IMG/VR virus record: IMGVR_UViG_2778261509_000015
DNA from: a virus
Lineage: Duplodnaviria > Heunggongvirae > Uroviricota > Caudoviricetes
Direction: 5' to 3' (one strand)
DNA length: 33,902 nt
The translations under genes were made by a program, and so were the position numbers. The notes under the pieces were generated by a model. It was not told where the DNA came from and did no database searches. It saw nothing but the letters and a program-made list of their open reading frames with translations. Positions 6,241 through 32,534 of the stretch are shown piece by piece; the stretch's first letter is position 1; the number at the start of each line of letters is the position of its first letter.

Positions 6241-6613
6241 TCAGCGCCTCATGCTCAAAATCCCCGGCATTCTCAATGGCTCCCATACCGCTCAGCGACA
6301 GAACCATCTCCGCCCCCGCTCCCAGGGCATCATACGACCATGTTGTAATAACGGATGCGCAAAGCGTCTCAACATCCTGAGACTGTTCCGCATTCCACAG
6401 TGAGCGGGAAACCAGCCAGGCATTGATATCCATCCCCATCCGCAGAAAAGCAATCTGTCGTTCAGCCTCCGGCAGTTCTCCCTCTTCGGCATCAAACTTT
6501 GCCGTTCGCTGCTGAACAAACGTCAGATATTCAATTCTCTGCAGCCCGGACAGCTCACTGAGCACCACGGACTGCTTTTCATAATTAAACGTGCCCTGTT
6601 TCAGAAACATCAT
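6224..6613 (-). CDS. G: Tail assembly chaperone G
   Basis: Position between V and H; MMFLKQGTF... resembles lambda G N-terminus; ATG at 6613 preceded by GGTGGAG (ORF track start 6652 is TTG). Confidence 0.8.
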   Translation of the reverse strand: MMFLKQGTFNYEKQSVVLSELSGLQRIEYLTFVQQRTAKFDAEEGELPEAERQIAFLRMGMDINAWLVSRSLWNAEQSQDVETLCASVITTWSYDALGAGAEMVLSLSGMGAIENAGDFEHEALTPEKS

Positions 6614-6627
6614 GTTCTCCACCTGTA

Positions 6628-6650
6628 AAAAAGCCCCGGATAACCGGGGC
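6628..6650 (-). terminator. Hairpin GCCCCGG-TTAT-CCGGGGC followed by TTTTTT between V and G
   Basis: Read directly on minus strand: gccccggttatccggggctttttt, 22 nt after V stop and about 15 nt before G RBS. Confidence 0.5.
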
Positions 6651-6670
6651 AAATGATGAGTATCGTCCTG

Positions 6671-7414
6671 TTAACCTGCGGCGCTGACAGCCACCGTAGC
6701 CACTGCCACAAAATCGCCGTCAGAAGTCATGCCCACAATGCTGACACTGCCCTGCTTCACGCCTTTCACCGTGGCCACAAGCCCGTTCAGGGTCACCGTG
6801 GCAGTCTGTGGATCTGTCGAATGCACACTGATCGCTTTGTCACTGGCTCCGTCAGGTTTTACTGTAAAGGTCAGCGTGGTGGTTGCTCCCACATTGACAC
6901 TGGCGGATGCCGGTGCCACCGTCAGCCCGGTAACGCCAACGGTTTCAGTGCCCTCCTCTGCCAGATATGGACGCCCCACACCGCTGATTTTCACGGTGCG
7001 GGTCATCACGTCTTTTGAGGCAATGGTTTTACCCAGTGAACTCAGCCAGCCACGGAAAACATCAACAGTACCGTTGGGATATTTGATACGAAACGCGCAG
7101 ACTTCACCGGAGTCGAACAACTGAACCAGTTTTTTCTGCCCGCTGTCACCCGGACGCCAGGCCAGCGTCGCCGAAGTATCACCGACGGATTTCTGCCCCT
7201 GGGTTGTCGTTTTCCAGTCTGCATCTTCATCATCGAGATAAGTGTCATCTTCTGCATCAGCGGTCATTTCGCCAGGTTGCAGATCCTTCACCATCGCAAG
7301 ACGCAGCCAGTCAGTGTCCGATAAAGGGTTCGCAAACGCATCGCCCTTGCCGGTGTACATCCAGAACGTCGTTCCCGCACCTTTCGTTTTTGCCAGTGGA
7401 TTTGGTGTGGTCAT
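6671..7414 (-). CDS. V: Major tail protein V with C-terminal Ig-like (Big_2-type) domain
   Basis: MTTPNPLAKTKGAGTTFWMY...NGTVDVFRGW resembles lambda V; ATG at 7414 with AGGAGG 7 nt upstream (ORF track start 7420 is GTG). Confidence 0.9.
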   Translation of the reverse strand: MTTPNPLAKTKGAGTTFWMYTGKGDAFANPLSDTDWLRLAMVKDLQPGEMTADAEDDTYLDDEDADWKTTTQGQKSVGDTSATLAWRPGDSGQKKLVQLFDSGEVCAFRIKYPNGTVDVFRGWLSSLGKTIASKDVMTRTVKISGVGRPYLAEEGTETVGVTGLTVAPASASVNVGATTTLTFTVKPDGASDKAISVHSTDPQTATVTLNGLVATVKGVKQGSVSIVGMTSDGDFVAVATVAVSAAG

Positions 7415-7839: not shown

Positions 7840-8414
7840 AACCTCAGTTGTTGTTTCAGTGCATACCCCAGCTGTTTCGGCATTTCCGCAGCAATGATGC
7901 GGTCGCGGGCATCTTCAAATGCCTGTGTCAGCGGTCCGGACAGCGGGATTTTCACTACCTCCACAGGAAGACGATTTTTTCTTGGCCTGCCCTGATGGTC
8001 ATGCCCTGTTGCAAAACGCGCTTCAGGAAGACGCCTCAAAACATGCCAGCGGCCATTCGCCAGTTGCTGAACAAATGCCCCCCGGAAAAAGTATTTTCCC
8101 ACTCTCAGTCCTTCACCAGCACGCCGCCGTGTTGTGTTCAGTTTGATGGCGGGCAGATTGCCCCGGTTAACGCGGATCCTGGCCGTCATTTTTCCTGACG
8201 GACTGGCTTTAAACACCCGGACACGCTGACGTACCAGTTTCAGGGGGATCCCTTTCACCTGGTTATCTCCCGCAACGGTATTCCCGGCAACCTGCCGGGT
8301 GGCAACCGAGACCGCTTTCTGTGCCACACGGTTTATCGCCCATGCGCTGGCCTGTGGCACCATACGGGTATCAAGGCTGTTCAGATTGCGGATGGCATTC
8401 TCAAGCCCCTTCAT
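7824..8414 (-). CDS. Z: Tail completion protein Z
   Basis: 196 aa basic protein between FII-like and U in lambda order; ATG start. Confidence 0.7.
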   Translation of the reverse strand: MKGLENAIRNLNSLDTRMVPQASAWAINRVAQKAVSVATRQVAGNTVAGDNQVKGIPLKLVRQRVRVFKASPSGKMTARIRVNRGNLPAIKLNTTRRRAGEGLRVGKYFFRGAFVQQLANGRWHVLRRLPEARFATGHDHQGRPRKNRLPVEVVKIPLSGPLTQAFEDARDRIIAAEMPKQLGYALKQQLRLWLTR

Positions 8415-8425
8415 CCCACACCTCT

Positions 8426-8701
8426 TTACTCAATAAAGATCATTGGCTTACCGTTAAAACGTTCATGCCGTGTGACCGTCCATTGTTGTCCGTCATAAAC
8501 AACGCGATCCCCGCGCCGTGGGCGGTATCCCGAAGAAAACACCACCAGAGAGACCGCAGGTCCGGACAGAGCATTCAGCTCTGCCAGTGTTTCGCCCGGG
8601 ATCACAGCCATATCGACATCATTAATCGAGGCTGTCTTTCCCATCTTTCTGACCGTGATCGCATCCATACGCGCTGCCAGCCGGGAAAAGGGATCAGACA
8701 T
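8426..8701 (-). CDS. Head-tail attachment protein (FII-like)
   Basis: 91 aa; position upstream of Z; conserved RRGD motif region resembles lambda FII. Confidence 0.55.
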   Translation of the reverse strand: MSDPFSRLAARMDAITVRKMGKTASINDVDMAVIPGETLAELNALSGPAVSLVVFSSGYRPRRGDRVVYDGQQWTVTRHERFNGKPMIFIE

Positions 8702-18013: not shown

Positions 18014-18088
<75 letters not shown>

Positions 18089-23334: not shown

Positions 23335-23724
23335 TCAGGCAGCTGCACCCGCCGTTTTCTCGTACTTACTGATAGTGATCTCGACCTTCCCTTCCGGGAT
23401 AACCGGTCCCCACTCCACCAGCATTCTTTTCACCTGACTGTCGTCTTCCCACACACCCGCGTGGGTCAGGGCGTCAAACAGCGCCTTGTTATAGTTGTCC
23501 AGATCGCGGATCCGGTTATCCGGCGGAAACAACACGATCTCCACTGAAGCAGGTGCCGACGTTGGTTTCGGCAGACGACGTAACTGCTCAACTATTGCTG
23601 CACACGCCGCGCTCTGGAATTTGCGCCCCGCCGCGCTTATCAGGCTCTTACCTGCAAACGCCCCTTTGTTGGGGTGTCGCCAGTACGTGTTCACGCAGGG
23701 CGGAAAAGGCAGGATCAGCTTCAT
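23335..23724 (-). CDS. rusA: RusA-family Holliday junction resolvase
   Basis: 129 aa; DLDNYNKALFDALTHAGVWEDDSQV matches the RusA catalytic region. Confidence 0.8.
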   Translation of the reverse strand: MKLILPFPPCVNTYWRHPNKGAFAGKSLISAAGRKFQSAACAAIVEQLRRLPKPTSAPASVEIVLFPPDNRIRDLDNYNKALFDALTHAGVWEDDSQVKRMLVEWGPVIPEGKVEITISKYEKTAGAAA

Positions 23725-24047
23725 ACTTTCAGGCCTCTCTCATGTAACCAGTGGGCTGCACGCAACCTGGCGTTCTCCTCACCGGCAAGCAGTGCGCGGA
23801 TGATACCGACCGCCTCGCTGTCGTCGTCCTTCACCGCGGTATGAAGCGTGATCCCCCGGGCCACGCCACGCTTTATCGTGATGACGCCTTTTTTCTCCAG
23901 TGCGCGAAGATGCTCTACCGCTGCATTCACTGAACGGTATCCCAGCATGGTTGCCACCTCCTGATTGGTTGGCGGGAAGCCACGTTCTTTCTGGTAAGAA
24001 ATCAGCATATCCAGCACCTGCTGCTGGCATTGAGTTAACGTCGTCAT
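23721..24047 (-). CDS. LexA-type winged-helix DNA-binding protein lacking the S24 peptidase domain
   Basis: ATG at 24047 (ATGA overlap with upstream stop) gives MTTLTQCQQQVLDMLISYQKERGFPPTNQEVATMLGYRSVNAAVEHLRALEKKGVI, closely resembling the LexA N-terminal domain; only 108 aa. Confidence 0.6.
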   Translation of the reverse strand: MTTLTQCQQQVLDMLISYQKERGFPPTNQEVATMLGYRSVNAAVEHLRALEKKGVITIKRGVARGITLHTAVKDDDSEAVGIIRALLAGEENARLRAAHWLHERGLKV

Positions 24048-24373
24048 GCCGCCATCTCCCTGACCAGTTTTTCCGCCTGGCGAGTCAGGCACAAAATCAC
24101 CCGGGAATCGTTAGTGCCGACATAGAAATTGCGCACAGGTCTGGTTTCACGAACTGGTTGTGGTTCCGGCTCCTGCGCTCTCTCAGCCAGGCGTGGGAAA
24201 TGTCTGCGTGTATCTCCTTCACAACGGTGAGCCACACGCCCACTCTGACGTAACTTGCTTGCTGACTGCAGAACGTGCTGCCGTGAGTAACCTGCAAAAG
24301 CATCCGCAATGTCTCCGGAAGTACACCCCGGATGGGCTTCAATGAATTTCTGAACTTCATTCAAAAGACTCAT
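24044..24373 (-). CDS. Hypothetical phage protein (possible winged-helix)
   Basis: ATG at 24373 with GGGGGTG upstream; coupled to O-like stop and LexA-like start; no confident homology. Confidence 0.4.
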   Translation of the reverse strand: MSLLNEVQKFIEAHPGCTSGDIADAFAGYSRQHVLQSASKLRQSGRVAHRCEGDTRRHFPRLAERAQEPEPQPVRETRPVRNFYVGTNDSRVILCLTRQAEKLVREMAA

Positions 24374-24375
24374 GA

Positions 24376-25194
24376 TCACCCCCTGAATCCTGCCGGGATC
24401 TGGCTGTAGTCCACGTTGTCGTAACTGGCTTTGAAGTACGGGTCCTCGCGTCTGGCTGCAGATACTGCAGGAACTTCCCAGGATTCTTCGAAATGACGAT
24501 CCGGACCAAAGAACGTGACAGCCTGTTTCACAAATTGTGTGCCGCTGTTACCCATCGCAGATACCCAGCCCGCGTAGCGTTTCACACCTTCCAGCATGGT
24601 TTCGGGTTTTACCCCCTCATTCAAACGAGCTTTCCAGGCTTTGAAGGCTGCAGATTTTGAATTGCCACCAGCACGTTTGGGGTATGCCAGCCATGCCTGC
24701 TCAAACTCCGGAGAGTATTCCGGTCGGTTTGAACGAACTCGCACGGACTCATCAGCAGATGCACCAACAGCTATTGGTTCATTGACTGGTTCTTTGACTG
24801 GTTCAAAAGAGTGACTGGTTCTGGGTGAATCTCCTGCACCACCCCCTGGTGCAACTCCTGCACTACCTGGTGAATTTGCTGCACCAGATAGTGAATTATT
24901 TGCACTACCCCATAGTGAATCTCCTGCACCATCAAGATGAAGGAGATAGATATTACTTGAGTTACCTTTTTCACCTTTCCGGGTGACTTTTTTTACCAGC
25001 CCGGACTCACAAAGGGCCGCAATATGATTCATCACAGAACGTTTGCTAATTTCGCACTGGTCAGCAATATGCTGGTAGCTGGGCCAGCACTCACCCTGAT
25101 CGCTGGCATTATCAGCCAGCTTGATCAGAACCAGTTTTCGCAATGGATTACCCACTCGAATTTTCATCGCTTTAACCATCAGCTCCATACTCAT
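24376..25194 (-). CDS. Replication initiation protein (O-like; N-terminal wHTH, central low-complexity linker)
   Basis: N-terminal LRKLVLIKLADNASDQGECWPSYQHIADQCEISKRSVMNHIAALCESGLV HTH; iteron array inside the gene as in lambda O; ATG at 25194 with GGAGGTG upstream. Confidence 0.65.
   Translation of the reverse strand: MSMELMVKAMKIRVGNPLRKLVLIKLADNASDQGECWPSYQHIADQCEISKRSVMNHIAALCESGLVKKVTRKGEKGNSSNIYLLHLDGAGDSLWGSANNSLSGAANSPGSAGVAPGGGAGDSPRTSHSFEPVKEPVNEPIAVGASADESVRVRSNRPEYSPEFEQAWLAYPKRAGGNSKSAAFKAWKARLNEGVKPETMLEGVKRYAGWVSAMGNSGTQFVKQAVTFFGPDRHFEESWEVPAVSAARREDPYFKASYDNVDYSQIPAGFRG
24771..24975. repeat. Candidate replication origin: two iteron arrays plus AT-rich stretch inside the O-like gene
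   Basis: Four copies of TTGACTGGTTC-like 11-mer (24771..24821) and five copies of a ~20-bp GTGAATCTCCTGCACC-like repeat at ~21-24 bp spacing (24824..24933), then AT-rich 24934..24975. Confidence 0.6.
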
Positions 25195-25427
25195 GCTGCA
25201 CCTCCGAGATGCTTCATGTTTTTTCCGGAGCGAAAGGCTATAAGCGGCATACTGACGCGGTAATTACGGCCCAGCGGTTCACAAATCACCTTCTGGCATT
25301 CACGGTCAACCAGGCTAACACGTAGAACATGCCCTGCAGGCGTGGTGTACCACTGCCCAACTGTAGGAATTGATGTTTTTTTACGCTGAAGCAAACGGCA
25401 AATATTGAGGATCAACGGATTAAGCAT
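25191..25427 (-). CDS. Hypothetical protein (78 aa)
   Basis: ATG with GGAGGG 8 nt upstream; ATGA coupling to O-like start; no homology recognised. Confidence 0.4.
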   Translation of the reverse strand: MLNPLILNICRLLQRKKTSIPTVGQWYTTPAGHVLRVSLVDRECQKVICEPLGRNYRVSMPLIAFRSGKNMKHLGGAA

Positions 25428-26256
25428 GACGATGCCCTCCGCTGATATTCAGGAGACGGTGAATATGAAAATTAGCCTTATCCGCCAGACGAATACGTTC
25501 AGCCTGCAAGTTAAGAAGGGTTTCTACCAAAACCTGATGCGCCTGCGGATCCGAAAGAGTTACCTTGCGCAGAGCACGTAGTGCAGTTGTTACATAACTG
25601 AGTTTATGTAAGTCTTCATCATTCAGACGAGTGAGGGCTGGGACAGTAGCCATGATGGCAGCCTCCTTGATCGGTGAAATACTTCCACCACCGGAAACGC
25701 CAATTTCGCTGGTGGTGAACTGAACGGGGTTGGCGTAACCGGTGATCAAGGAAACCGGCGCATCTTTCGATGCCCCCGCCCAGCCCACCATAACTTTGAT
25801 GTGAGCAAATGCGGACGATAAAAAAGACGCTGGCGCGTCATATATCGCCTTGATCAATTCCAGGACGCCAATCCCGGCACCCGCTTTATAAGGTGCCTGA
25901 ACAGTGTAACGTCCCGGAATGGCAGAATCAATGTGCTGGTGGTCCTTCACACTCAACAAAATCACGCCTGAATTTCCACAAAGGACTAAAGCACTCATGC
26001 GGGTAGTCTTTGCGAAGATAGATAACGCGCTGTGTTTCTGGCTCCCAACGAATAACATGGACATAAAGCCCTCTTCCATCACGAAACCAGCGGTTAAGTT
26101 CCTGCACAACTCGCCCCCCACAGTCAGGTAAAGTTCTCTGTGGTTACTTACAGCCAGGTGATTTGGTAATCTGCATTCATGCCGTAACAACAGGTGTTCA
26201 GCGACGCTGACCACCAGCTGTTGCGACAAACGGTTATTTGCCGTTAAACTGTTCAT
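25420..26256 (-). CDS. Hypothetical phage protein (278 aa), function unknown
   Basis: Long ORF, ATG with GGAGAA upstream, ATGA coupling to upstream gene; size and position resemble Rac ydaU-like genes, but no sequence recall. Confidence 0.5.
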   Translation of the reverse strand: MNSLTANNRLSQQLVVSVAEHLLLRHECRLPNHLAVSNHRELYLTVGGELCRNLTAGFVMEEGFMSMLFVGSQKHSALSIFAKTTRMSALVLCGNSGVILLSVKDHQHIDSAIPGRYTVQAPYKAGAGIGVLELIKAIYDAPASFLSSAFAHIKVMVGWAGASKDAPVSLITGYANPVQFTTSEIGVSGGGSISPIKEAAIMATVPALTRLNDEDLHKLSYVTTALRALRKVTLSDPQAHQVLVETLLNLQAERIRLADKANFHIHRLLNISGGHRHA

Positions 26257-26816
26257 GCGTTAGTTTCTCCACAGACACAAAACGCCACGACGCCCGGAGC
26301 TGCACACTCGCGGGCGTCACTCTTTTCTGGAGCGCAAAAGATTTTGTAGACCAGTGCTGCATGCTCCTGGAGCTTCGAAATTGACAGATACAACTCATCA
26401 TTAATTGCTGTCTGCTCGTGTGGCTCCACTACCCCATCTTCGATTGCCGAACGAATCTGCTTTGAGTAACTCCCGATCTGTTCGATGACTTCCAGCAGGC
26501 GCTGGTTTATATCGGCGTTCTCTACTTCCTCAATTTCAGGAAGCGATACAAACACCCCACCAGCAGACTGTGCGACAGCATCCGCAATGTAGTGAGTGCC
26601 AGCCGCGCGCTGTAAAATCATTGCCCATCCCAGCGGGAAAATCTGATCGCCATCTGCACGAAGGCGGTTGAATAAAGCGTTCTCTGTTACATCCAGCCAC
26701 TCAGCAGCTTCAGCGTAACCCCCCGGCAACGCCGCGATAGTTTTTCTGACAGCTTTCACGTACCACTCAGGCTGTTTTTCTACTTTCCAGTGATGCTTAC
26801 CCACGGTTAGCCTCAT
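26253..26816 (-). CDS. Putative CII-like / YdaT-like early regulatory protein (187 aa)
   Basis: Position immediately downstream of cro-like gene; weak family resemblance only; no clear RBS. Confidence 0.4.
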   Translation of the reverse strand: MRLTVGKHHWKVEKQPEWYVKAVRKTIAALPGGYAEAAEWLDVTENALFNRLRADGDQIFPLGWAMILQRAAGTHYIADAVAQSAGGVFVSLPEIEEVENADINQRLLEVIEQIGSYSKQIRSAIEDGVVEPHEQTAINDELYLSISKLQEHAALVYKIFCAPEKSDARECAAPGVVAFCVCGETNA

Positions 26817-26847
26817 CGTTCTGTGGTTAAAAATTGAAGGTGTTCTG

Positions 26848-27048
26848 TTAATCTTTCGGATAGATATCCGGTCTTAAGTCAGATTTCGTAATTGCACCTG
26901 ACGTGCATTGCTCAAGTTTTTTAGCCAGCACAAAACTGGCTTTTTTATAACCATTGAAAACCAGCCGTAAGTAGCCTGGTGTTGAGCCAACTTTTCCGGC
27001 CAACTCGCCCTGCTGTTCTTTGGTTAAAGAGTCCCAATACGCTTTCAT
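26848..27048 (-). CDS. Cro-like repressor (YdaS-family HTH)
   Basis: ATG at 27048 with GGAGG upstream gives 66-aa MKAYWDSLTKEQQGELAGKVGSTPGYLRLVFNGYKK...SDLRPDIY; divergent from the cI-like gene. Confidence 0.65.
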   Translation of the reverse strand: MKAYWDSLTKEQQGELAGKVGSTPGYLRLVFNGYKKASFVLAKKLEQCTSGAITKSDLRPDIYPKD

Positions 27049-27053
27049 ACAAT

Positions 27054-27132
27054 ATGTACCTCCGATATACATATTACATGATTGAGATGAACCTTCAAGA
27101 TACTTGTACCCTATCGGTACAAAGGTTTTAAT
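27054..27132. promoter_or_regulatory. Immunity switch: operators O2 (27054..27072) and O1 (27104..27122) with divergent pR-like and pRM-like promoters
   Basis: O1 is the palindrome TTGTACCctatcGGTACAA; O2 is ATGTACCtccgaTATACAT. pR (minus) has -35 TTGAAG, 16 bp spacer, -10 TAATAT; pRM (plus) has -35 TTGTAC, 17 bp spacer, -10 TTTAAT and would give a leaderless cI mRNA. Confidence 0.5.
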
Positions 27133-27138
27133 TTCGTT

Positions 27139-27813
27139 ATGAAAACAGTCCATGACATCCGGCGGTCTAACGCCAGAAAACTGAGAGATGGTGTTGGCGG
27201 GAATTCTTCCTTTGCCACCATGATTGATCGCGAGCCAACCCAGACCAGCAGGTTTATGGGAGATGGTGCTACTAAAAATATCGGTGACAGCATGGCACGG
27301 CACATCGAAAAATGTTTCGACCTTCCTGTCGGATGGCTTGATCAAGAACACCAGACAACAAACATCACAAAAAAACCTGATGTTTCAATTACTAACAAAC
27401 AAATAACGTTAGTCCCTGTCATATCATGGGTACAGGCCGGAGCATGGAAAGAAGTTGGCTATTCTGAGGTTGATTTGAGCACAGCAGAAACTTATCCCTG
27501 CCCTGTACCCTGTGGCGAAATGACTTATATCTTGCGGGTGATTGGTGATTCAATGATTGATGAGTACCGCCCGGGAGACATGATTTTTGTAGATCCTGAA
27601 GTCCCTGCCTGCCACGGTGACGACGTTATTGCATTGATGCACGATACAGGCGAAACCACCTTTAAGCGGTTGATAGAAGATGGAACACAGCGTTACCTCA
27701 AAGCATTAAACCCAAACTGGCCTGAACCTTACATTAAGATCAACGGTAATTGCTCTATAATTGGTACAGTAATTTTCTCAGGAAAACCAAGAAGATACAA
27801 AATAAAGGCCTAA
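27139..27813 (+). CDS. CI-like repressor with C-terminal S24 (LexA-like) autopeptidase domain
   Basis: 224 aa; C-terminal GDSM...KR motifs of S24 peptidases; divergent from cro-like gene; start codon abuts predicted pRM start site. Confidence 0.8.
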   Translation: MKTVHDIRRSNARKLRDGVGGNSSFATMIDREPTQTSRFMGDGATKNIGDSMARHIEKCFDLPVGWLDQEHQTTNITKKPDVSITNKQITLVPVISWVQAGAWKEVGYSEVDLSTAETYPCPVPCGEMTYILRVIGDSMIDEYRPGDMIFVDPEVPACHGDDVIALMHDTGETTFKRLIEDGTQRYLKALNPNWPEPYIKINGNCSIIGTVIFSGKPRRYKIKA

Positions 27814-27825
27814 TCAATATTTATA

Positions 27826-27848
27826 ACCTGCTTCGGCAGGTTTTTTTA
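27826..27848 (+). terminator. Rho-independent terminator after cI (stem AACCTGC / GCAGGTT, UUCG loop, T7 run)
   Basis: Read directly: aacctgcttcggcaggttttttt, 13 nt after cI stop. Confidence 0.8.
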
Positions 27849-27851
27849 TAC

Positions 27852-27879
27852 TTGACAATGTACCCATGAGATACATAAT
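27852..27879 (+). promoter_or_regulatory. pL-like sigma70 promoter with overlapping operator O3
   Basis: -35 TTGACA (27852..27857), 16 bp spacer, -10 CATAAT (27874..27879); operator-like ATGTACCcatgaGATACAT (27858..27876) fills the spacer and -10. Confidence 0.6.
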
Positions 27880-28296
27880 GTATCTAAAAGAAACATGTCA
27901 CAGGCAAGATTAAACAAAATTTGGTTGTAACACGGCGTATGGCACATGCGTCGTTAGCGGTCTGGGGACGTTAAAGGGGACAATCCACTCCTTGCTCGGG
28001 CAAACAAACCAGGTAGCCGGAATGTGCAAGTCAATGATGATGCTGATAAGACGCCTAACCAGCGTGGCGATCCGGTTTGACGCCTGGGAAGAGACCAGGG
28101 TGCAACGATGAGGGCATTTATGGAGCCGCGACAAAGTGTGGTGCCGTAACTGGCTAAGTGCTCTCAGCGTTGTGGTAATCCGCGAAATGGCGCGGCGGTA
28201 AGTATGGCGGGGTTACTCTTTCCCCGTTGAGGACACCGGATTGTCAGGTTGACCATACGCCTGAGTGACAACCCCACCACAACAGCCACTGCTTTG

Positions 28297-28341
28297 GCGG
28301 TACCAGTTTGTACACTTTCTTCCGGCTGGTACCGCTCTTTT
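28297..28341 (+). terminator. Terminator-like inverted repeat in the pL leader (GCGGTACCAG...CTGGTACCGC + TCTTTTT)
   Basis: 10-bp perfect arms at 28297..28306 and 28326..28335 with 19-nt loop, followed by a T-run. Confidence 0.4.
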
Positions 28342-28479
28342 TACAAAACAGAGAAGAGCATCACCGGACGACGGGCTCATAACCCAATCCACCCGGGCGG
28401 CTGCCACCGCAGGTGTTCTTCTCTGTTTTGTGGAGAAACCAACCGACCTTGCAGGGTCGATATGATGAGGAGCAGCAAA

Positions 28480-28842
28480 ATGGCTAGCGAACGCAGTACT
28501 GATGTGCAGGCATTTATCGGGGAGCTGGACGGCGGCGTATTTGAAACCAAAATCGGCGCAGTTCTCAGTGAAGTCGCTTCAGGTGTGATGAACACGAAAA
28601 CCAAAGGTAAGGTCTCACTCAACTTGGAAATCGAACCATTTGATGAGAACCGTGTGAAAATCAAACACAAACTCTCATATGTTCGCCCGACTAACCGCGG
28701 GAAAATTTCCGAAGAAGACACCACCGAAACGCCGATGTATGTCAATCGCGGTGGTCGCCTGACTATTCTGCAGGAAGACCAGGGACAATTACTGACTCTT
28801 GCCGGTGAACCTGACGGAAAACTCCGCGCAGCAGGTCATTAA
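28480..28842 (+). CDS. YfdP-like hypothetical protein (120 aa)
   Basis: ATG at 28480 with GAGGAG 8 nt upstream; size and position match CPS-53 yfdP (sizes recalled); first gene of the yfdPQRST-like operon. Confidence 0.5.
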   Translation: MASERSTDVQAFIGELDGGVFETKIGAVLSEVASGVMNTKTKGKVSLNLEIEPFDENRVKIKHKLSYVRPTNRGKISEEDTTETPMYVNRGGRLTILQEDQGQLLTLAGEPDGKLRAAGH

Positions 28843-28907
28843 TATCGTTCTTAATTAACCGATTATTTATCTCATCACTGAATATCTTTATATAGTGAGG
28901 ACTTATT

Positions 28908-29732
28908 ATGTCTCAGAACTTAGACGCAACCGCAATTAATCAAATCCATGCCCTTATTTCTGCTCAGGGTGTTAATGAAATTATCAGTAAGATTGGTGCC
29001 GATGCGGTGGCATTGCCTGAGAATTTCCGCATTCATGATCTGGAAAAATTTAATTTAAATCGCTTCCGTTTCCGTGGTGCGCTTTCCACTGCCAGCATCG
29101 ATGACTTTACCCGTTATTCTAAAGATCTTGCAGATGAAGGCACCCGCTGCTTTATCGATGCCGATAATATGCGTGCCGTCAGTGTGCTTAACCTGGGTAC
29201 TATTGATGAACCAGGTCACGCAGATAACACCGCCACTCTCAAACTGAAAAAGACAGCACCGTTTTCTGCTCTGTTGTCTGTTAATGGCGAGCGTAACTCC
29301 CAGAAGTCACTGGCAGAATGGATTGAAGACTGGGCCGACTACCTAGTGGGCTTTGATGCTAATGGTGACGCCATTCAGGCAACAAAAGCGGCTGCGGCTG
29401 TCCGTAAAATCACGATTGAAGCAAACCAGACCGCTGATTTTGAAGATAATGACTTCAGCGGCAAACGCTCCCTGATGGAGTCTGTCGAAGCGAAGACCAA
29501 AGATATTATGCCAGTGGCATTTGAATTTAAATGCGTTCCGTTTGAAGGTCTGAAAGAACGTCCATTTAAATTACGCCTCAGCATTATCACTGGCGATCGT
29601 CCTGTACTGGTTCTGCGCATTATTCAGCTGGAAGCAGTGCAGGAAGAAATGGCTAACGAATTTCGTGATCTGCTTGTTGAGAAATTCAAAGACAGCAAAG
29701 TAGAAACCTTTATTGGTACTTTCACCGCCTGA
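28908..29732 (+). CDS. YfdQ-like DUF2303 protein (274 aa)
   Basis: ATG with GTGAGGA upstream; length identical to CPS-53 YfdQ as recalled; gene order P-Q-R-S-T conserved. Confidence 0.65.
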
Positions 29733-32458: not shown

Positions 32459-32534
32459 TGGTGCCGATAATAGGAGTCGAACCTACGACCTTCGCATTAC
32501 GAATGCGCTGCTCTACCAACTGAGCTATATCGGC
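32459..32534 (-). tRNA. thrW: tRNA-Thr (anticodon CGU), host thrW; prophage attachment site
   Basis: Minus-strand GCCGATATAGCTCAGTTGGTAGAGCAGCGCATTCGTAATGCGAAGGTCGTAGGTTCGACTCCTATTATCGGCACCA; anticodon loop TTCGTAA; lies between integrase and proA as in E. coli. Confidence 0.9.

Follow-up and report, generated by a model that had tools for sequence, protein, structure and literature searches.

An isrK/C4 RNA module annotated as protein between the CII-like and replication genes of an SfV-type Escherichia coli prophage

We analysed a 33,902-nucleotide (nt) stretch of viral DNA (IMG/VR record IMGVR_UViG_2778261509_000015), hereafter the window, in which three open reading frames (ORFs) of 187, 278, and 78 codons lie between a cro-like gene and an O-like replication gene. 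All coordinates are those of the whole window, and the elements of the locus lie on the minus strand unless stated otherwise. The locus belongs to the early-right operon of a lambdoid prophage of the SfV type in Escherichia coli. The 278-amino-acid (aa) ORF is a read-through of five separate elements, including a known antisense-RNA module composed of isrK and C4, and the order of the locus is cro, ymfL, a short ymfM-like ORF, a nested DUF4222 gene, the RNA module, orf76, orf78, and the replication initiator. The part of the ORF that databases call 'Ash' consists of RNA genes with a conserved structure and with paired specificity sites that vary in concert, and it bears no protein-type selection. 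By analogy with characterised systems, we consider it quite probable that the region is an immI/P4-type RNA switch, set between a CII-like gene and a replication gene and read as protein by annotation.

The three ORFs, which a first-pass annotation had described as unknown protein genes coupled by ATGA or TAATG overlaps, are present at 26253-26816, 25420-26256, and 25191-25427, flanked by the cro/YdaS-like gene (26848-27048) and the O-like gene (24376-25194); a divergent LexA-type cI (27139-27813, plus strand) lies upstream of the cro-like gene. Read from the sequence, the 187/278 and 78/O-like junctions are indeed ATGA, whereas the 278/78 junction is ATGCTTAA, an 8-nt overlap, and not TAATG. 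Beyond YmfL, its cII equivalent, the slot contains small genes and the RNA module. The three ORFs are not three unknown protein genes, however, since the first is YmfL and the second is the composite described above. Nor does the 278-aa ORF stand as one protein gene lacking a family, as it has a Pfam Phage_ASH match, is split by the Prokaryotic Genome Annotation Pipeline (PGAP), and encloses two Rfam matches. The DNA of this locus matches that of E. coli RM10740 at 100% identity and orf36-orf39 of Shigella phage SfV at 98%. The annotation of this same DNA is discordant: SfV carries a single 278-aa orf37, labelled 'immunity region', while PGAP gives RM10740 a 59-aa DUF4222 gene in another frame (25928-26107) and a 181-aa 'ash family' ORF.

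Both Rfam matches lie inside the 278-aa ORF, on its coding strand, and exceed their gathering scores. The first is an isrK-like leader RNA, the equivalent of P4 seqA (25820-25896; RF01394, 64.2 bits against a gathering score of 50), which ends in an intrinsic terminator (stem 25839-25826 followed by U6) that was also listed by a generic scan. The second is a C4 antisense RNA, the equivalent of the P4 CI RNA (25708-25795; RF01695, 82.3 bits against 45), whose match covers the covariance model at full length (1-87 of 87). The minimum-free-energy fold of C4 coincides with the Rfam structure (-45.4 kcal/mol) and shows a long outer stem around two hairpins, which is backed by compensatory changes. 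Specifically, a covariance model built from three variants recovered 67 C4 copies in 57 loci, and among the 55 distinct sequences 99.9% of the cells pair, with 17 of the 27 pairs changed on both sides. The covariation score of 0.539, obtained on an alignment that was fitted to the model and so favours its structure, compares with 0.227 in shuffles, none of 500 of which reaches it, and with at most 0.09 for slid partners. The 24-nt spacer between isrK and C4 varies at 19 sites. Phages that have no module (SfII, e14, mEp390, Klebsiella phi6.3, and YeP2) gave no C4 match, and in these the DUF4222 gene abuts the replication gene. Separately, several IMG/VR contigs (L105, L180, L202, L162, L099, L122, L125, and L153) have C4 in two or three copies that are spaced by a few hundred bases, which agrees with tandem Ash repeats in the database 'Ash' proteins P0137, P0149, and P0155; arrays of RNA modules with different specificities may therefore exist.

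C4 carries two elements with complements elsewhere in the module, the hairpin-2 loop b' (UUUCCUUGAUCA, 25754-25743) and the single-stranded junction a' (UACGCCAA, 25737-25730). One pair of complements, a1 (TTGGCGT, 25871-25865) and b1 (GATCAAGG, 25855-25848), is located in the isrK leader. The other pair forms the C4 target sites on the mRNA (25654-25703), where a2 (TTGGCGT) occupies 25703-25697 and b2 (GATCAAGG) occupies 25672-25665, overlapping the Shine-Dalgarno sequence AAGGAGG (25668-25662) of orf76. These exact 7-9-nt complements of a' and b' stand at fixed offsets and vary in concert. Among 58 SfV-type haplotypes, the hairpin-2 loop occurs in three versions (UUGAUCA, GAUAACG, and GUAUGCG), each of which is paired with exactly complementary changes in b1 and b2; three phages that show this concerted change are otherwise 94-100% identical. 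The predicted b':b2 duplexes are about twice as stable for cognate pairs (-14.5 to -16.7 kcal/mol) as for non-cognate pairs (-7.0 to -8.3 kcal/mol), and the occurrence of three b' types in near-identical phages implies distinct RNA specificities.

The same pattern holds in a wider scan of IMG/VR, which yielded 137 unique modules with 39 loop types. When complementarity was scored as an exact 8-mer, 17 of the 39 types had the b' complement at the b2 position (+81 to +91), 12 had it at b1, and 10 had it in both places, while the maxima in 2000 shuffles were 1, 0, and 0, respectively. For the 7-nt a' element, an exact complement lies at a2 (+53 to +59) in all 19 junction types and at a1 in 17 of them.

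It could be argued that the 278-aa (or 181-aa) ORF encodes a genuine 'Ash family' regulatory or antirepressor protein and that the RNA matches are incidental. Indeed, the product scores 67.7 bits against Pfam PF10554 Phage_ASH (gathering score 26), its PHROG matches are annotated as 'transcriptional regulator', 2111 database proteins match it with E <= 0.001, the 278-codon frame is open in 58 of 58 SfV-type haplotypes, and in a preprint on P4-like satellites PF10554 serves as the profile of the epsilon antirepressor. The Pfam match (aa 117-210, approximately 25908-25627), however, spans exactly the isrK/C4 stretch plus the first codons of orf76, and the distant 'Ash' relatives resemble the ORF in the RNA stretch alone (aa ~104-210). 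The best-conserved 'Ash' motif, EAAIMAT, is the translation of AAGGAGGCUGCCAUC-AUG, that is, of the perfect Shine-Dalgarno sequence and the start codon of orf76. Natural variants cross C4 in other frames, or carry in-frame stops 24-33 nt before the ATG. Additionally, the variation within the stretch is compensatory in the stems, concerted with the targets, and scarce at third codon positions of the 278-aa frame, which account for only 12 of the 68 variable sites, with 21 synonymous against 68 nonsynonymous changes, and the isrK-C4 spacer is variable at 19 of its 24 sites. The PF10554 stretch thus passes a hidden Markov model threshold and yet is not evolving as a protein, and a genuine Ash protein is very improbable here.

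The equation of Ash with the P4 epsilon antirepressor was ruled out on the P4 record itself. P4 epsilon is matched by PF25738 'Derepression' and not by PF10554; the latter falls on an ORF over the CI RNA gene (P4 record L209, 7888-8584). In P4 the Phage_ASH match corresponds to the obsolete 137-aa 'cI' ORF (8168-8584), which lies over the C4 match (8420-8507), with isrK upstream at 8692-8615. A PDB sequence search with the 278-aa ORF found no relative.

The RNA module also has a candidate promoter of its own (25903-25931), with a -35 hexamer TTGATT (25931-25926), a 17-nt spacer, a -10 hexamer TACACT (25908-25903), and a +1 G at 25896. The two hexamers recur at the same distance (6 nt) from isrK position 1 in modules with unrelated upstream flanks, and P4-like modules have TTGCTT.../TATAGT at the equivalent position. 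The candidate promoter probably stands outside CI control. Its -35 hexamer includes the stop codon of DUF4222, which marks the left edge of a mosaic insert.

The repression mechanism and its effect on replication are most likely those suggested by P1, P4, and Gifsy-1. In P1 c4-icd-ant, an antisense-RNA mechanism has been published (PMC8198154), and in P4 seqA/CI/seqC the CI RNA stops expression of the replication genes (PMC4825925). By analogy, the internal promoter would produce the isrK leader, with most transcripts ending at the isrK terminator, and read-through past it would yield C4. The processed C4 would expose single-stranded a' and b', which could anneal to a2 and b2 in any transcript that continues beyond C4; pairing at b2 would cover the orf76 Shine-Dalgarno sequence and block orf76 translation. 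Since overlapping stop and start codons link orf76 to orf78 and orf78 to the initiator, a failure to translate orf76 would, through uncoupling and polarity, silence the replication gene, which might thereby stay off both in the lysogen and in a superinfecting phage with matching RNA specificity. In the leader, the a1/b1 copy may act as a decoy that folds back on C4 or titrates it.

Several observations weigh against this scheme. The candidate promoter matches the consensus at 8 of 12 positions, which is why the generic scan did not list it, and the C4 alignment carries the bias noted above. No stop interrupts the 278-codon frame in any of the 58 SfV-type haplotypes, and in Gifsy-1 the ORF across the C4-like RNA is translated and needed for downstream translation (PMC4825925); translation through the RNAs may therefore belong to the mechanism. 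The short IsrK RNA of Gifsy-1 activates rather than represses (PMC4825925). Finally, neither its sequence nor its predicted fold marks orf76 as Icd-like or as an antirepressor, which makes the ultimate target of the module uncertain.

The open frame leads to an alternative in which translation overrides the RNA. The stop-free MNSLT frame that starts the 278-aa ORF, coupled to ymfL, would carry ribosomes on the PR transcript through the terminator, C4, and the blocked Shine-Dalgarno sequence into orf76, so that lytic expression would be immune to C4 while transcripts from the internal promoter would still be repressible. The frame is open over 837 nt in 58 haplotypes of three specificity types, where the other two frames have several stops; orf76 lies in the same frame; an intrinsic terminator sits inside the operon; and the downstream gene of Gifsy-1 requires translation across its C4-like RNA, with an orf45-anrP fusion of 287 aa reported in S. 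dysenteriae (PMC4825925). On the other hand, openness may merely come with conserved RNA sequence, some modules have stops 24-33 nt before the ATG, and the 5' part has no coding signature within the SfV-type variants. We regard the override as possible but somewhat unlikely.

A second alternative follows the logic of Gifsy-1, in which the long transcript would fold into an inactive form, the short IsrK RNA would activate orf76 in trans, and C4 would not be the main repressor. The anatomy invites this comparison, as the isrK match, the promoter position, and the terminator are those of Gifsy-1 IsrK, for which activation was shown by reporter fusions and compensatory mutations (PMC4825925). The strictly concerted variation of a' with a2 and of b' with b2 instead indicates selection on C4-target pairing over the Shine-Dalgarno sequence, which is the repressive geometry of P1 and P4, and we judge the Gifsy-1 mode unlikely as the principal one. 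The two modes are not exclusive, because the a1/b1 copy in IsrK could titrate C4.

On the RNA-switch reading, we tentatively propose that isrK/C4 might provide a second, RNA-based immunity that, like that of P4, gates the initiator, here from a CI-independent internal promoter; that the independently varying a' and b' might define replication-level immunity groups among phages sharing the same CI; and that the stop-less frame might let induction override the RNA lock. Once recognised, the module offers a point at which control over prophage replication, and over cross-immunity of otherwise similar prophages, can be tested.

The relation to known systems can be stated element by element. The locus resembles P1/P7 immI (c4, icd, ant1/2) in having a C4 of the same Rfam family and fold, a' and b' with a target pair both upstream (a1, b1) and downstream (a2, b2), and b2 over the ribosome-binding site of a first small ORF to which later genes are translationally coupled. 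Unlike that of P1/P7, the module here has no immunity operon to itself but is embedded in a lambdoid cro-cII-O operon, its first ORF is not Icd-like (NF033153 unmatched) and is followed by no ant gene, and its cargo is orf78 and the replication initiator. With the P4 immunity region (promoter PLE, seqA, CI RNA/seqB, and seqC) it shares isrK and C4 Rfam matches in the same order, a promoter at equal distance, replication genes downstream, and a translation that matches Pfam 'Ash'. In P4, by contrast, neither a CI/Cro protein switch nor a cII-like gene precedes the region, the cargo consists of epsilon, orf151, and the alpha primase-helicase, and P4-like modules have a longer isrK-C4 spacing, with b1 at -135 instead of -96.

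The Gifsy-1 isrK-orf45-anrP locus likewise has an isrK family RNA that has its own promoter (a candidate here) and ends in a leaky terminator, followed closely by a processed stable RNA (by prediction C4 here), and an ORF across that RNA with nucleotide-level conservation, sometimes fused to the next gene in annotation. The Gifsy-1 paper itself describes the ORF over the C4-like RNA as conserved in nucleotides and not in amino acids, and as fused to the next gene in one Shigella annotation (PMC4825925). Gifsy-1 differs in that its cargo is the antirepressor AnrP, IsrK acts as an activator, and the locus does not lie between cII and O. Closest in gene content upstream are e14 ymfL-ymfM (SfiC) and SfII cII-orf40, which share the cI-cro-ymfL block (92.8% identity), the MNSLT start over the ymfL stop, and a DUF4222 gene nested in the -1 frame. 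Unlike the window, both are without the RNA module, orf76, and orf78; their ORF in the MNSLT frame stops after 112 codons, just 5' of the replication gene; and the central part of the 5' ORF shows no sequence relationship.

In its 5' third, the 278-aa ORF combines two small genes read in different frames. The short ymfM-like ORF (MNSLT..., frame A; 26108-26256) has a start that overlaps the ymfL stop (ATGA), and frame A is stop-free from there to 25420. Its first ~49-58 codons look coding, with a ratio of nonsynonymous to synonymous substitution rates (dN/dS) of 0.27 against ST64B, and the e14-type equivalent has a dN/dS of 0.32 against the Klebsiella phage; among SfV-type variants, which offer just 16 variable sites, no coding signature was seen. 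In Yersinia phage YeP2 the same short ORF is 53 aa long and ends by ATGA at the DUF4222 start. This junction accounts for the -1 frame that DUF4222 occupies in each of the six lineages examined.

The DUF4222 gene itself (25928-26107; 59 aa, GTG start, G-rich Shine-Dalgarno) is nested in the -1 frame of the 278-aa ORF and matches Pfam PF13973 with an E value of 9.5e-14 (51.1 bits, cut-off 27). By tblastn it is found in 115 phage records at 38-98% identity, often immediately 5' of the replication gene. It is under strong purifying selection (dN/dS 0.09 between the window and ST64B, and 0.044 between e14 and the Klebsiella phage), whereas frame A over the same nucleotides shows a dS of 0.04 and a dN of 0.26 (figures for the e14 ymfM frame) and so is not selected as protein there. 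Dual coding was ruled out for the same reason, the dS of DUF4222 being as high as that of the neighbouring gene. A programmed -1 frameshift at G GGG GGC, which would lead from the MNSLT frame into DUF4222 and was considered because DUF4222 is always in the -1 frame, is unneeded, as the gene has its own Shine-Dalgarno sequence and start in every lineage. As an example of how easily these frames are fused by assembly or annotation, the database protein P0242 joins the DUF4222 N-terminus to the 'Ash' frame (MQELNRWF...RKDYRISALVL...), which a single-base indel in the contig would produce.

In e14, SfII, mEp390, and the Klebsiella phage, frame A continues for 112 codons and corresponds to ymfM of K-12. 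The ymfM of K-12 e14 (6323-6681, 112 aa) encloses a DUF4222 ORF in the -1 frame, with a TTG start at 6502 located 8 nt past an AAGGAG Shine-Dalgarno sequence; this ORF is not among the coding sequences listed there in the K-12 record. ymfM has been reported as the SfiC division inhibitor on the basis of a whole-ORF pBAD clone, which would include 53 of the 59 DUF4222 codons. Since term searches of that paper's text returned no frame-specific controls, the K-12 SfiC inhibitor could be the 5' peptide or DUF4222. The enclosed DUF4222 is far better conserved than the ymfM frame, which bears on the question of which product causes filamentation.

Gene 1 (26253-26816) is identified from sequence matches as YmfL, the positional cII equivalent directly after cro and a putative activator. 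It scores 169 bits against NCBIfam NF041471 YmfL (cut-off 90), matches Pfam PF06892 Phage_CP76 (CII) at 8.5e-15 (55.3 bits, cut-off 26), and matches phrog_101, 'CII-like transcriptional activator', at 5e-73; the gene is annotated ymfL in RM10740, and its equivalent in SfII is annotated cII. A PDB sequence search with YmfL found no relative. The annotated start, GTG 26804 (183 aa), has a GAGG Shine-Dalgarno sequence; the ATG at 26816 that opens the longest, 187-aa ORF has none. A lysis-lysogeny function for the slot, one of the roles suggested in the first-pass annotation, or an immunity function is supported by the CII-like YmfL and the isrK/C4 module.

Downstream of C4, the first cistron is orf76/77 (MATVPALTRLNDEDL..., 25420-25653), in frame with the upstream ORF and preceded by a perfect Shine-Dalgarno sequence 8 nt before ATG 25653. 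Its polymorphism (12 synonymous against 14 nonsynonymous changes) gives the best of the three frames, with a weak coding signature, and relatives of 25-46% identity occur 3' of C4 in other phages. The AlphaFold2 model is a helical hairpin (pLDDT 81.6), for which no structure search gave a match below an E value of 0.1; orf76 fell into no family of Pfam or NCBIfam, and a profile search of the PDB found no relative. At the same offset (+106), other modules carry Icd-like (NF033153, 78 bits), Rha-family (TIGR02681, 105 bits), or Bro/Ant-like genes, and orf76 matches none of these families.

The next cistron, orf78 (25191-25427), is coupled to orf76 by ATGCTTAA and to the replication gene by ATGA. 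On its predicted fold, this gene 3 is a real small beta-barrel protein: the model is SH3-like, with structure matches to generic SH3/Tudor/KOW domains, and the gene is kept as protein, with a dN/dS of 0.19 against the equivalent gene in Stx1_699, which also lies just 5' of the O gene. It belongs to phrog_1153, which is restricted to Enterobacteriaceae and 'hypothetical' everywhere. A relationship of orf78 to DUF4222 is possible, given a weak match (BLASTP E 0.013; hhalign E 0.006, 6% probability).

The gene that the module would gate, the O-like replication initiator (24376-25194), matches Pfam HTH_36 and DnaD_N in its N-terminal part and phrog_270, 'replication initiation protein', at 1.4e-87; no PDB relative was found by sequence. 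As no P/DnaC-like gene stands beside the initiator in the window, the first-pass annotation had suggested that one of the three ORFs supplies its helicase loader, a view that the constant position of orf78-like genes immediately 5' of the replication gene would also fit. None of the three products, however, matches lambda P or DnaC, or any other loader family, in Pfam, NCBIfam, or PHROGs, and the predicted folds are a helical hairpin for orf76 and a 78-aa SH3-like barrel for orf78. The only loader-like signal is found in the O-like protein itself, whose C-terminal half matches phrog_1701 ('DnaD-like helicase loader') and phrog_9327 ('primosomal protein'), and in a related Stx1 phage O is followed by a separate gene for a helicase. 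A loader among the three ORFs is thus hardly credible. The exclusion function also suggested found no backing, since the products have no meaningful match among the PADLOC defence models.

The locus is widespread. A 3.6-kb query (24300-27900), which also includes cI, cro, ymfL, and the O-like gene, finds a partial match in 3145 of 5426 complete E. coli genomes and a near-complete one in 492, and the isrK/C4 stretch matches 306 phage records, many of them Shiga toxin (Stx) phages. In such records the RNA switch is annotated as protein under the names 'ash family', 'transcriptional regulator', 'antirepressor', or 'peptidase', and such annotation consequently overlooks the RNA genes, the nested DUF4222 gene, and the point at which the downstream gene really begins.

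Other features of the window lie outside this locus. Compared with SfV (L002, 1933-3074), the stretch at 24044-24379 is without the gene for the dam methylase and has lost orf40 in its 3' part, leaving a remnant that PGAP marks as an incomplete pseudogene. At 23721-24092, beside RusA, the minus strand encodes a 108-123-aa protein that has the LexA DNA-binding domain only (PF01726, 4.2e-19) and no S24 peptidase domain, and that could be an uncleavable LexA mimic. On the leftward side of cI (28249-29732, plus strand), homologues of CPS-53-like yfdP (frameshifted according to PGAP), yfdQ, yfdR, and yfdT are present, with no lambda N-type gene. Two tRNA genes, tRNA-Gly(UCC) and tRNA-Thr(CGU), are located at 18014-18088 and 32459-32534, both on the minus strand.

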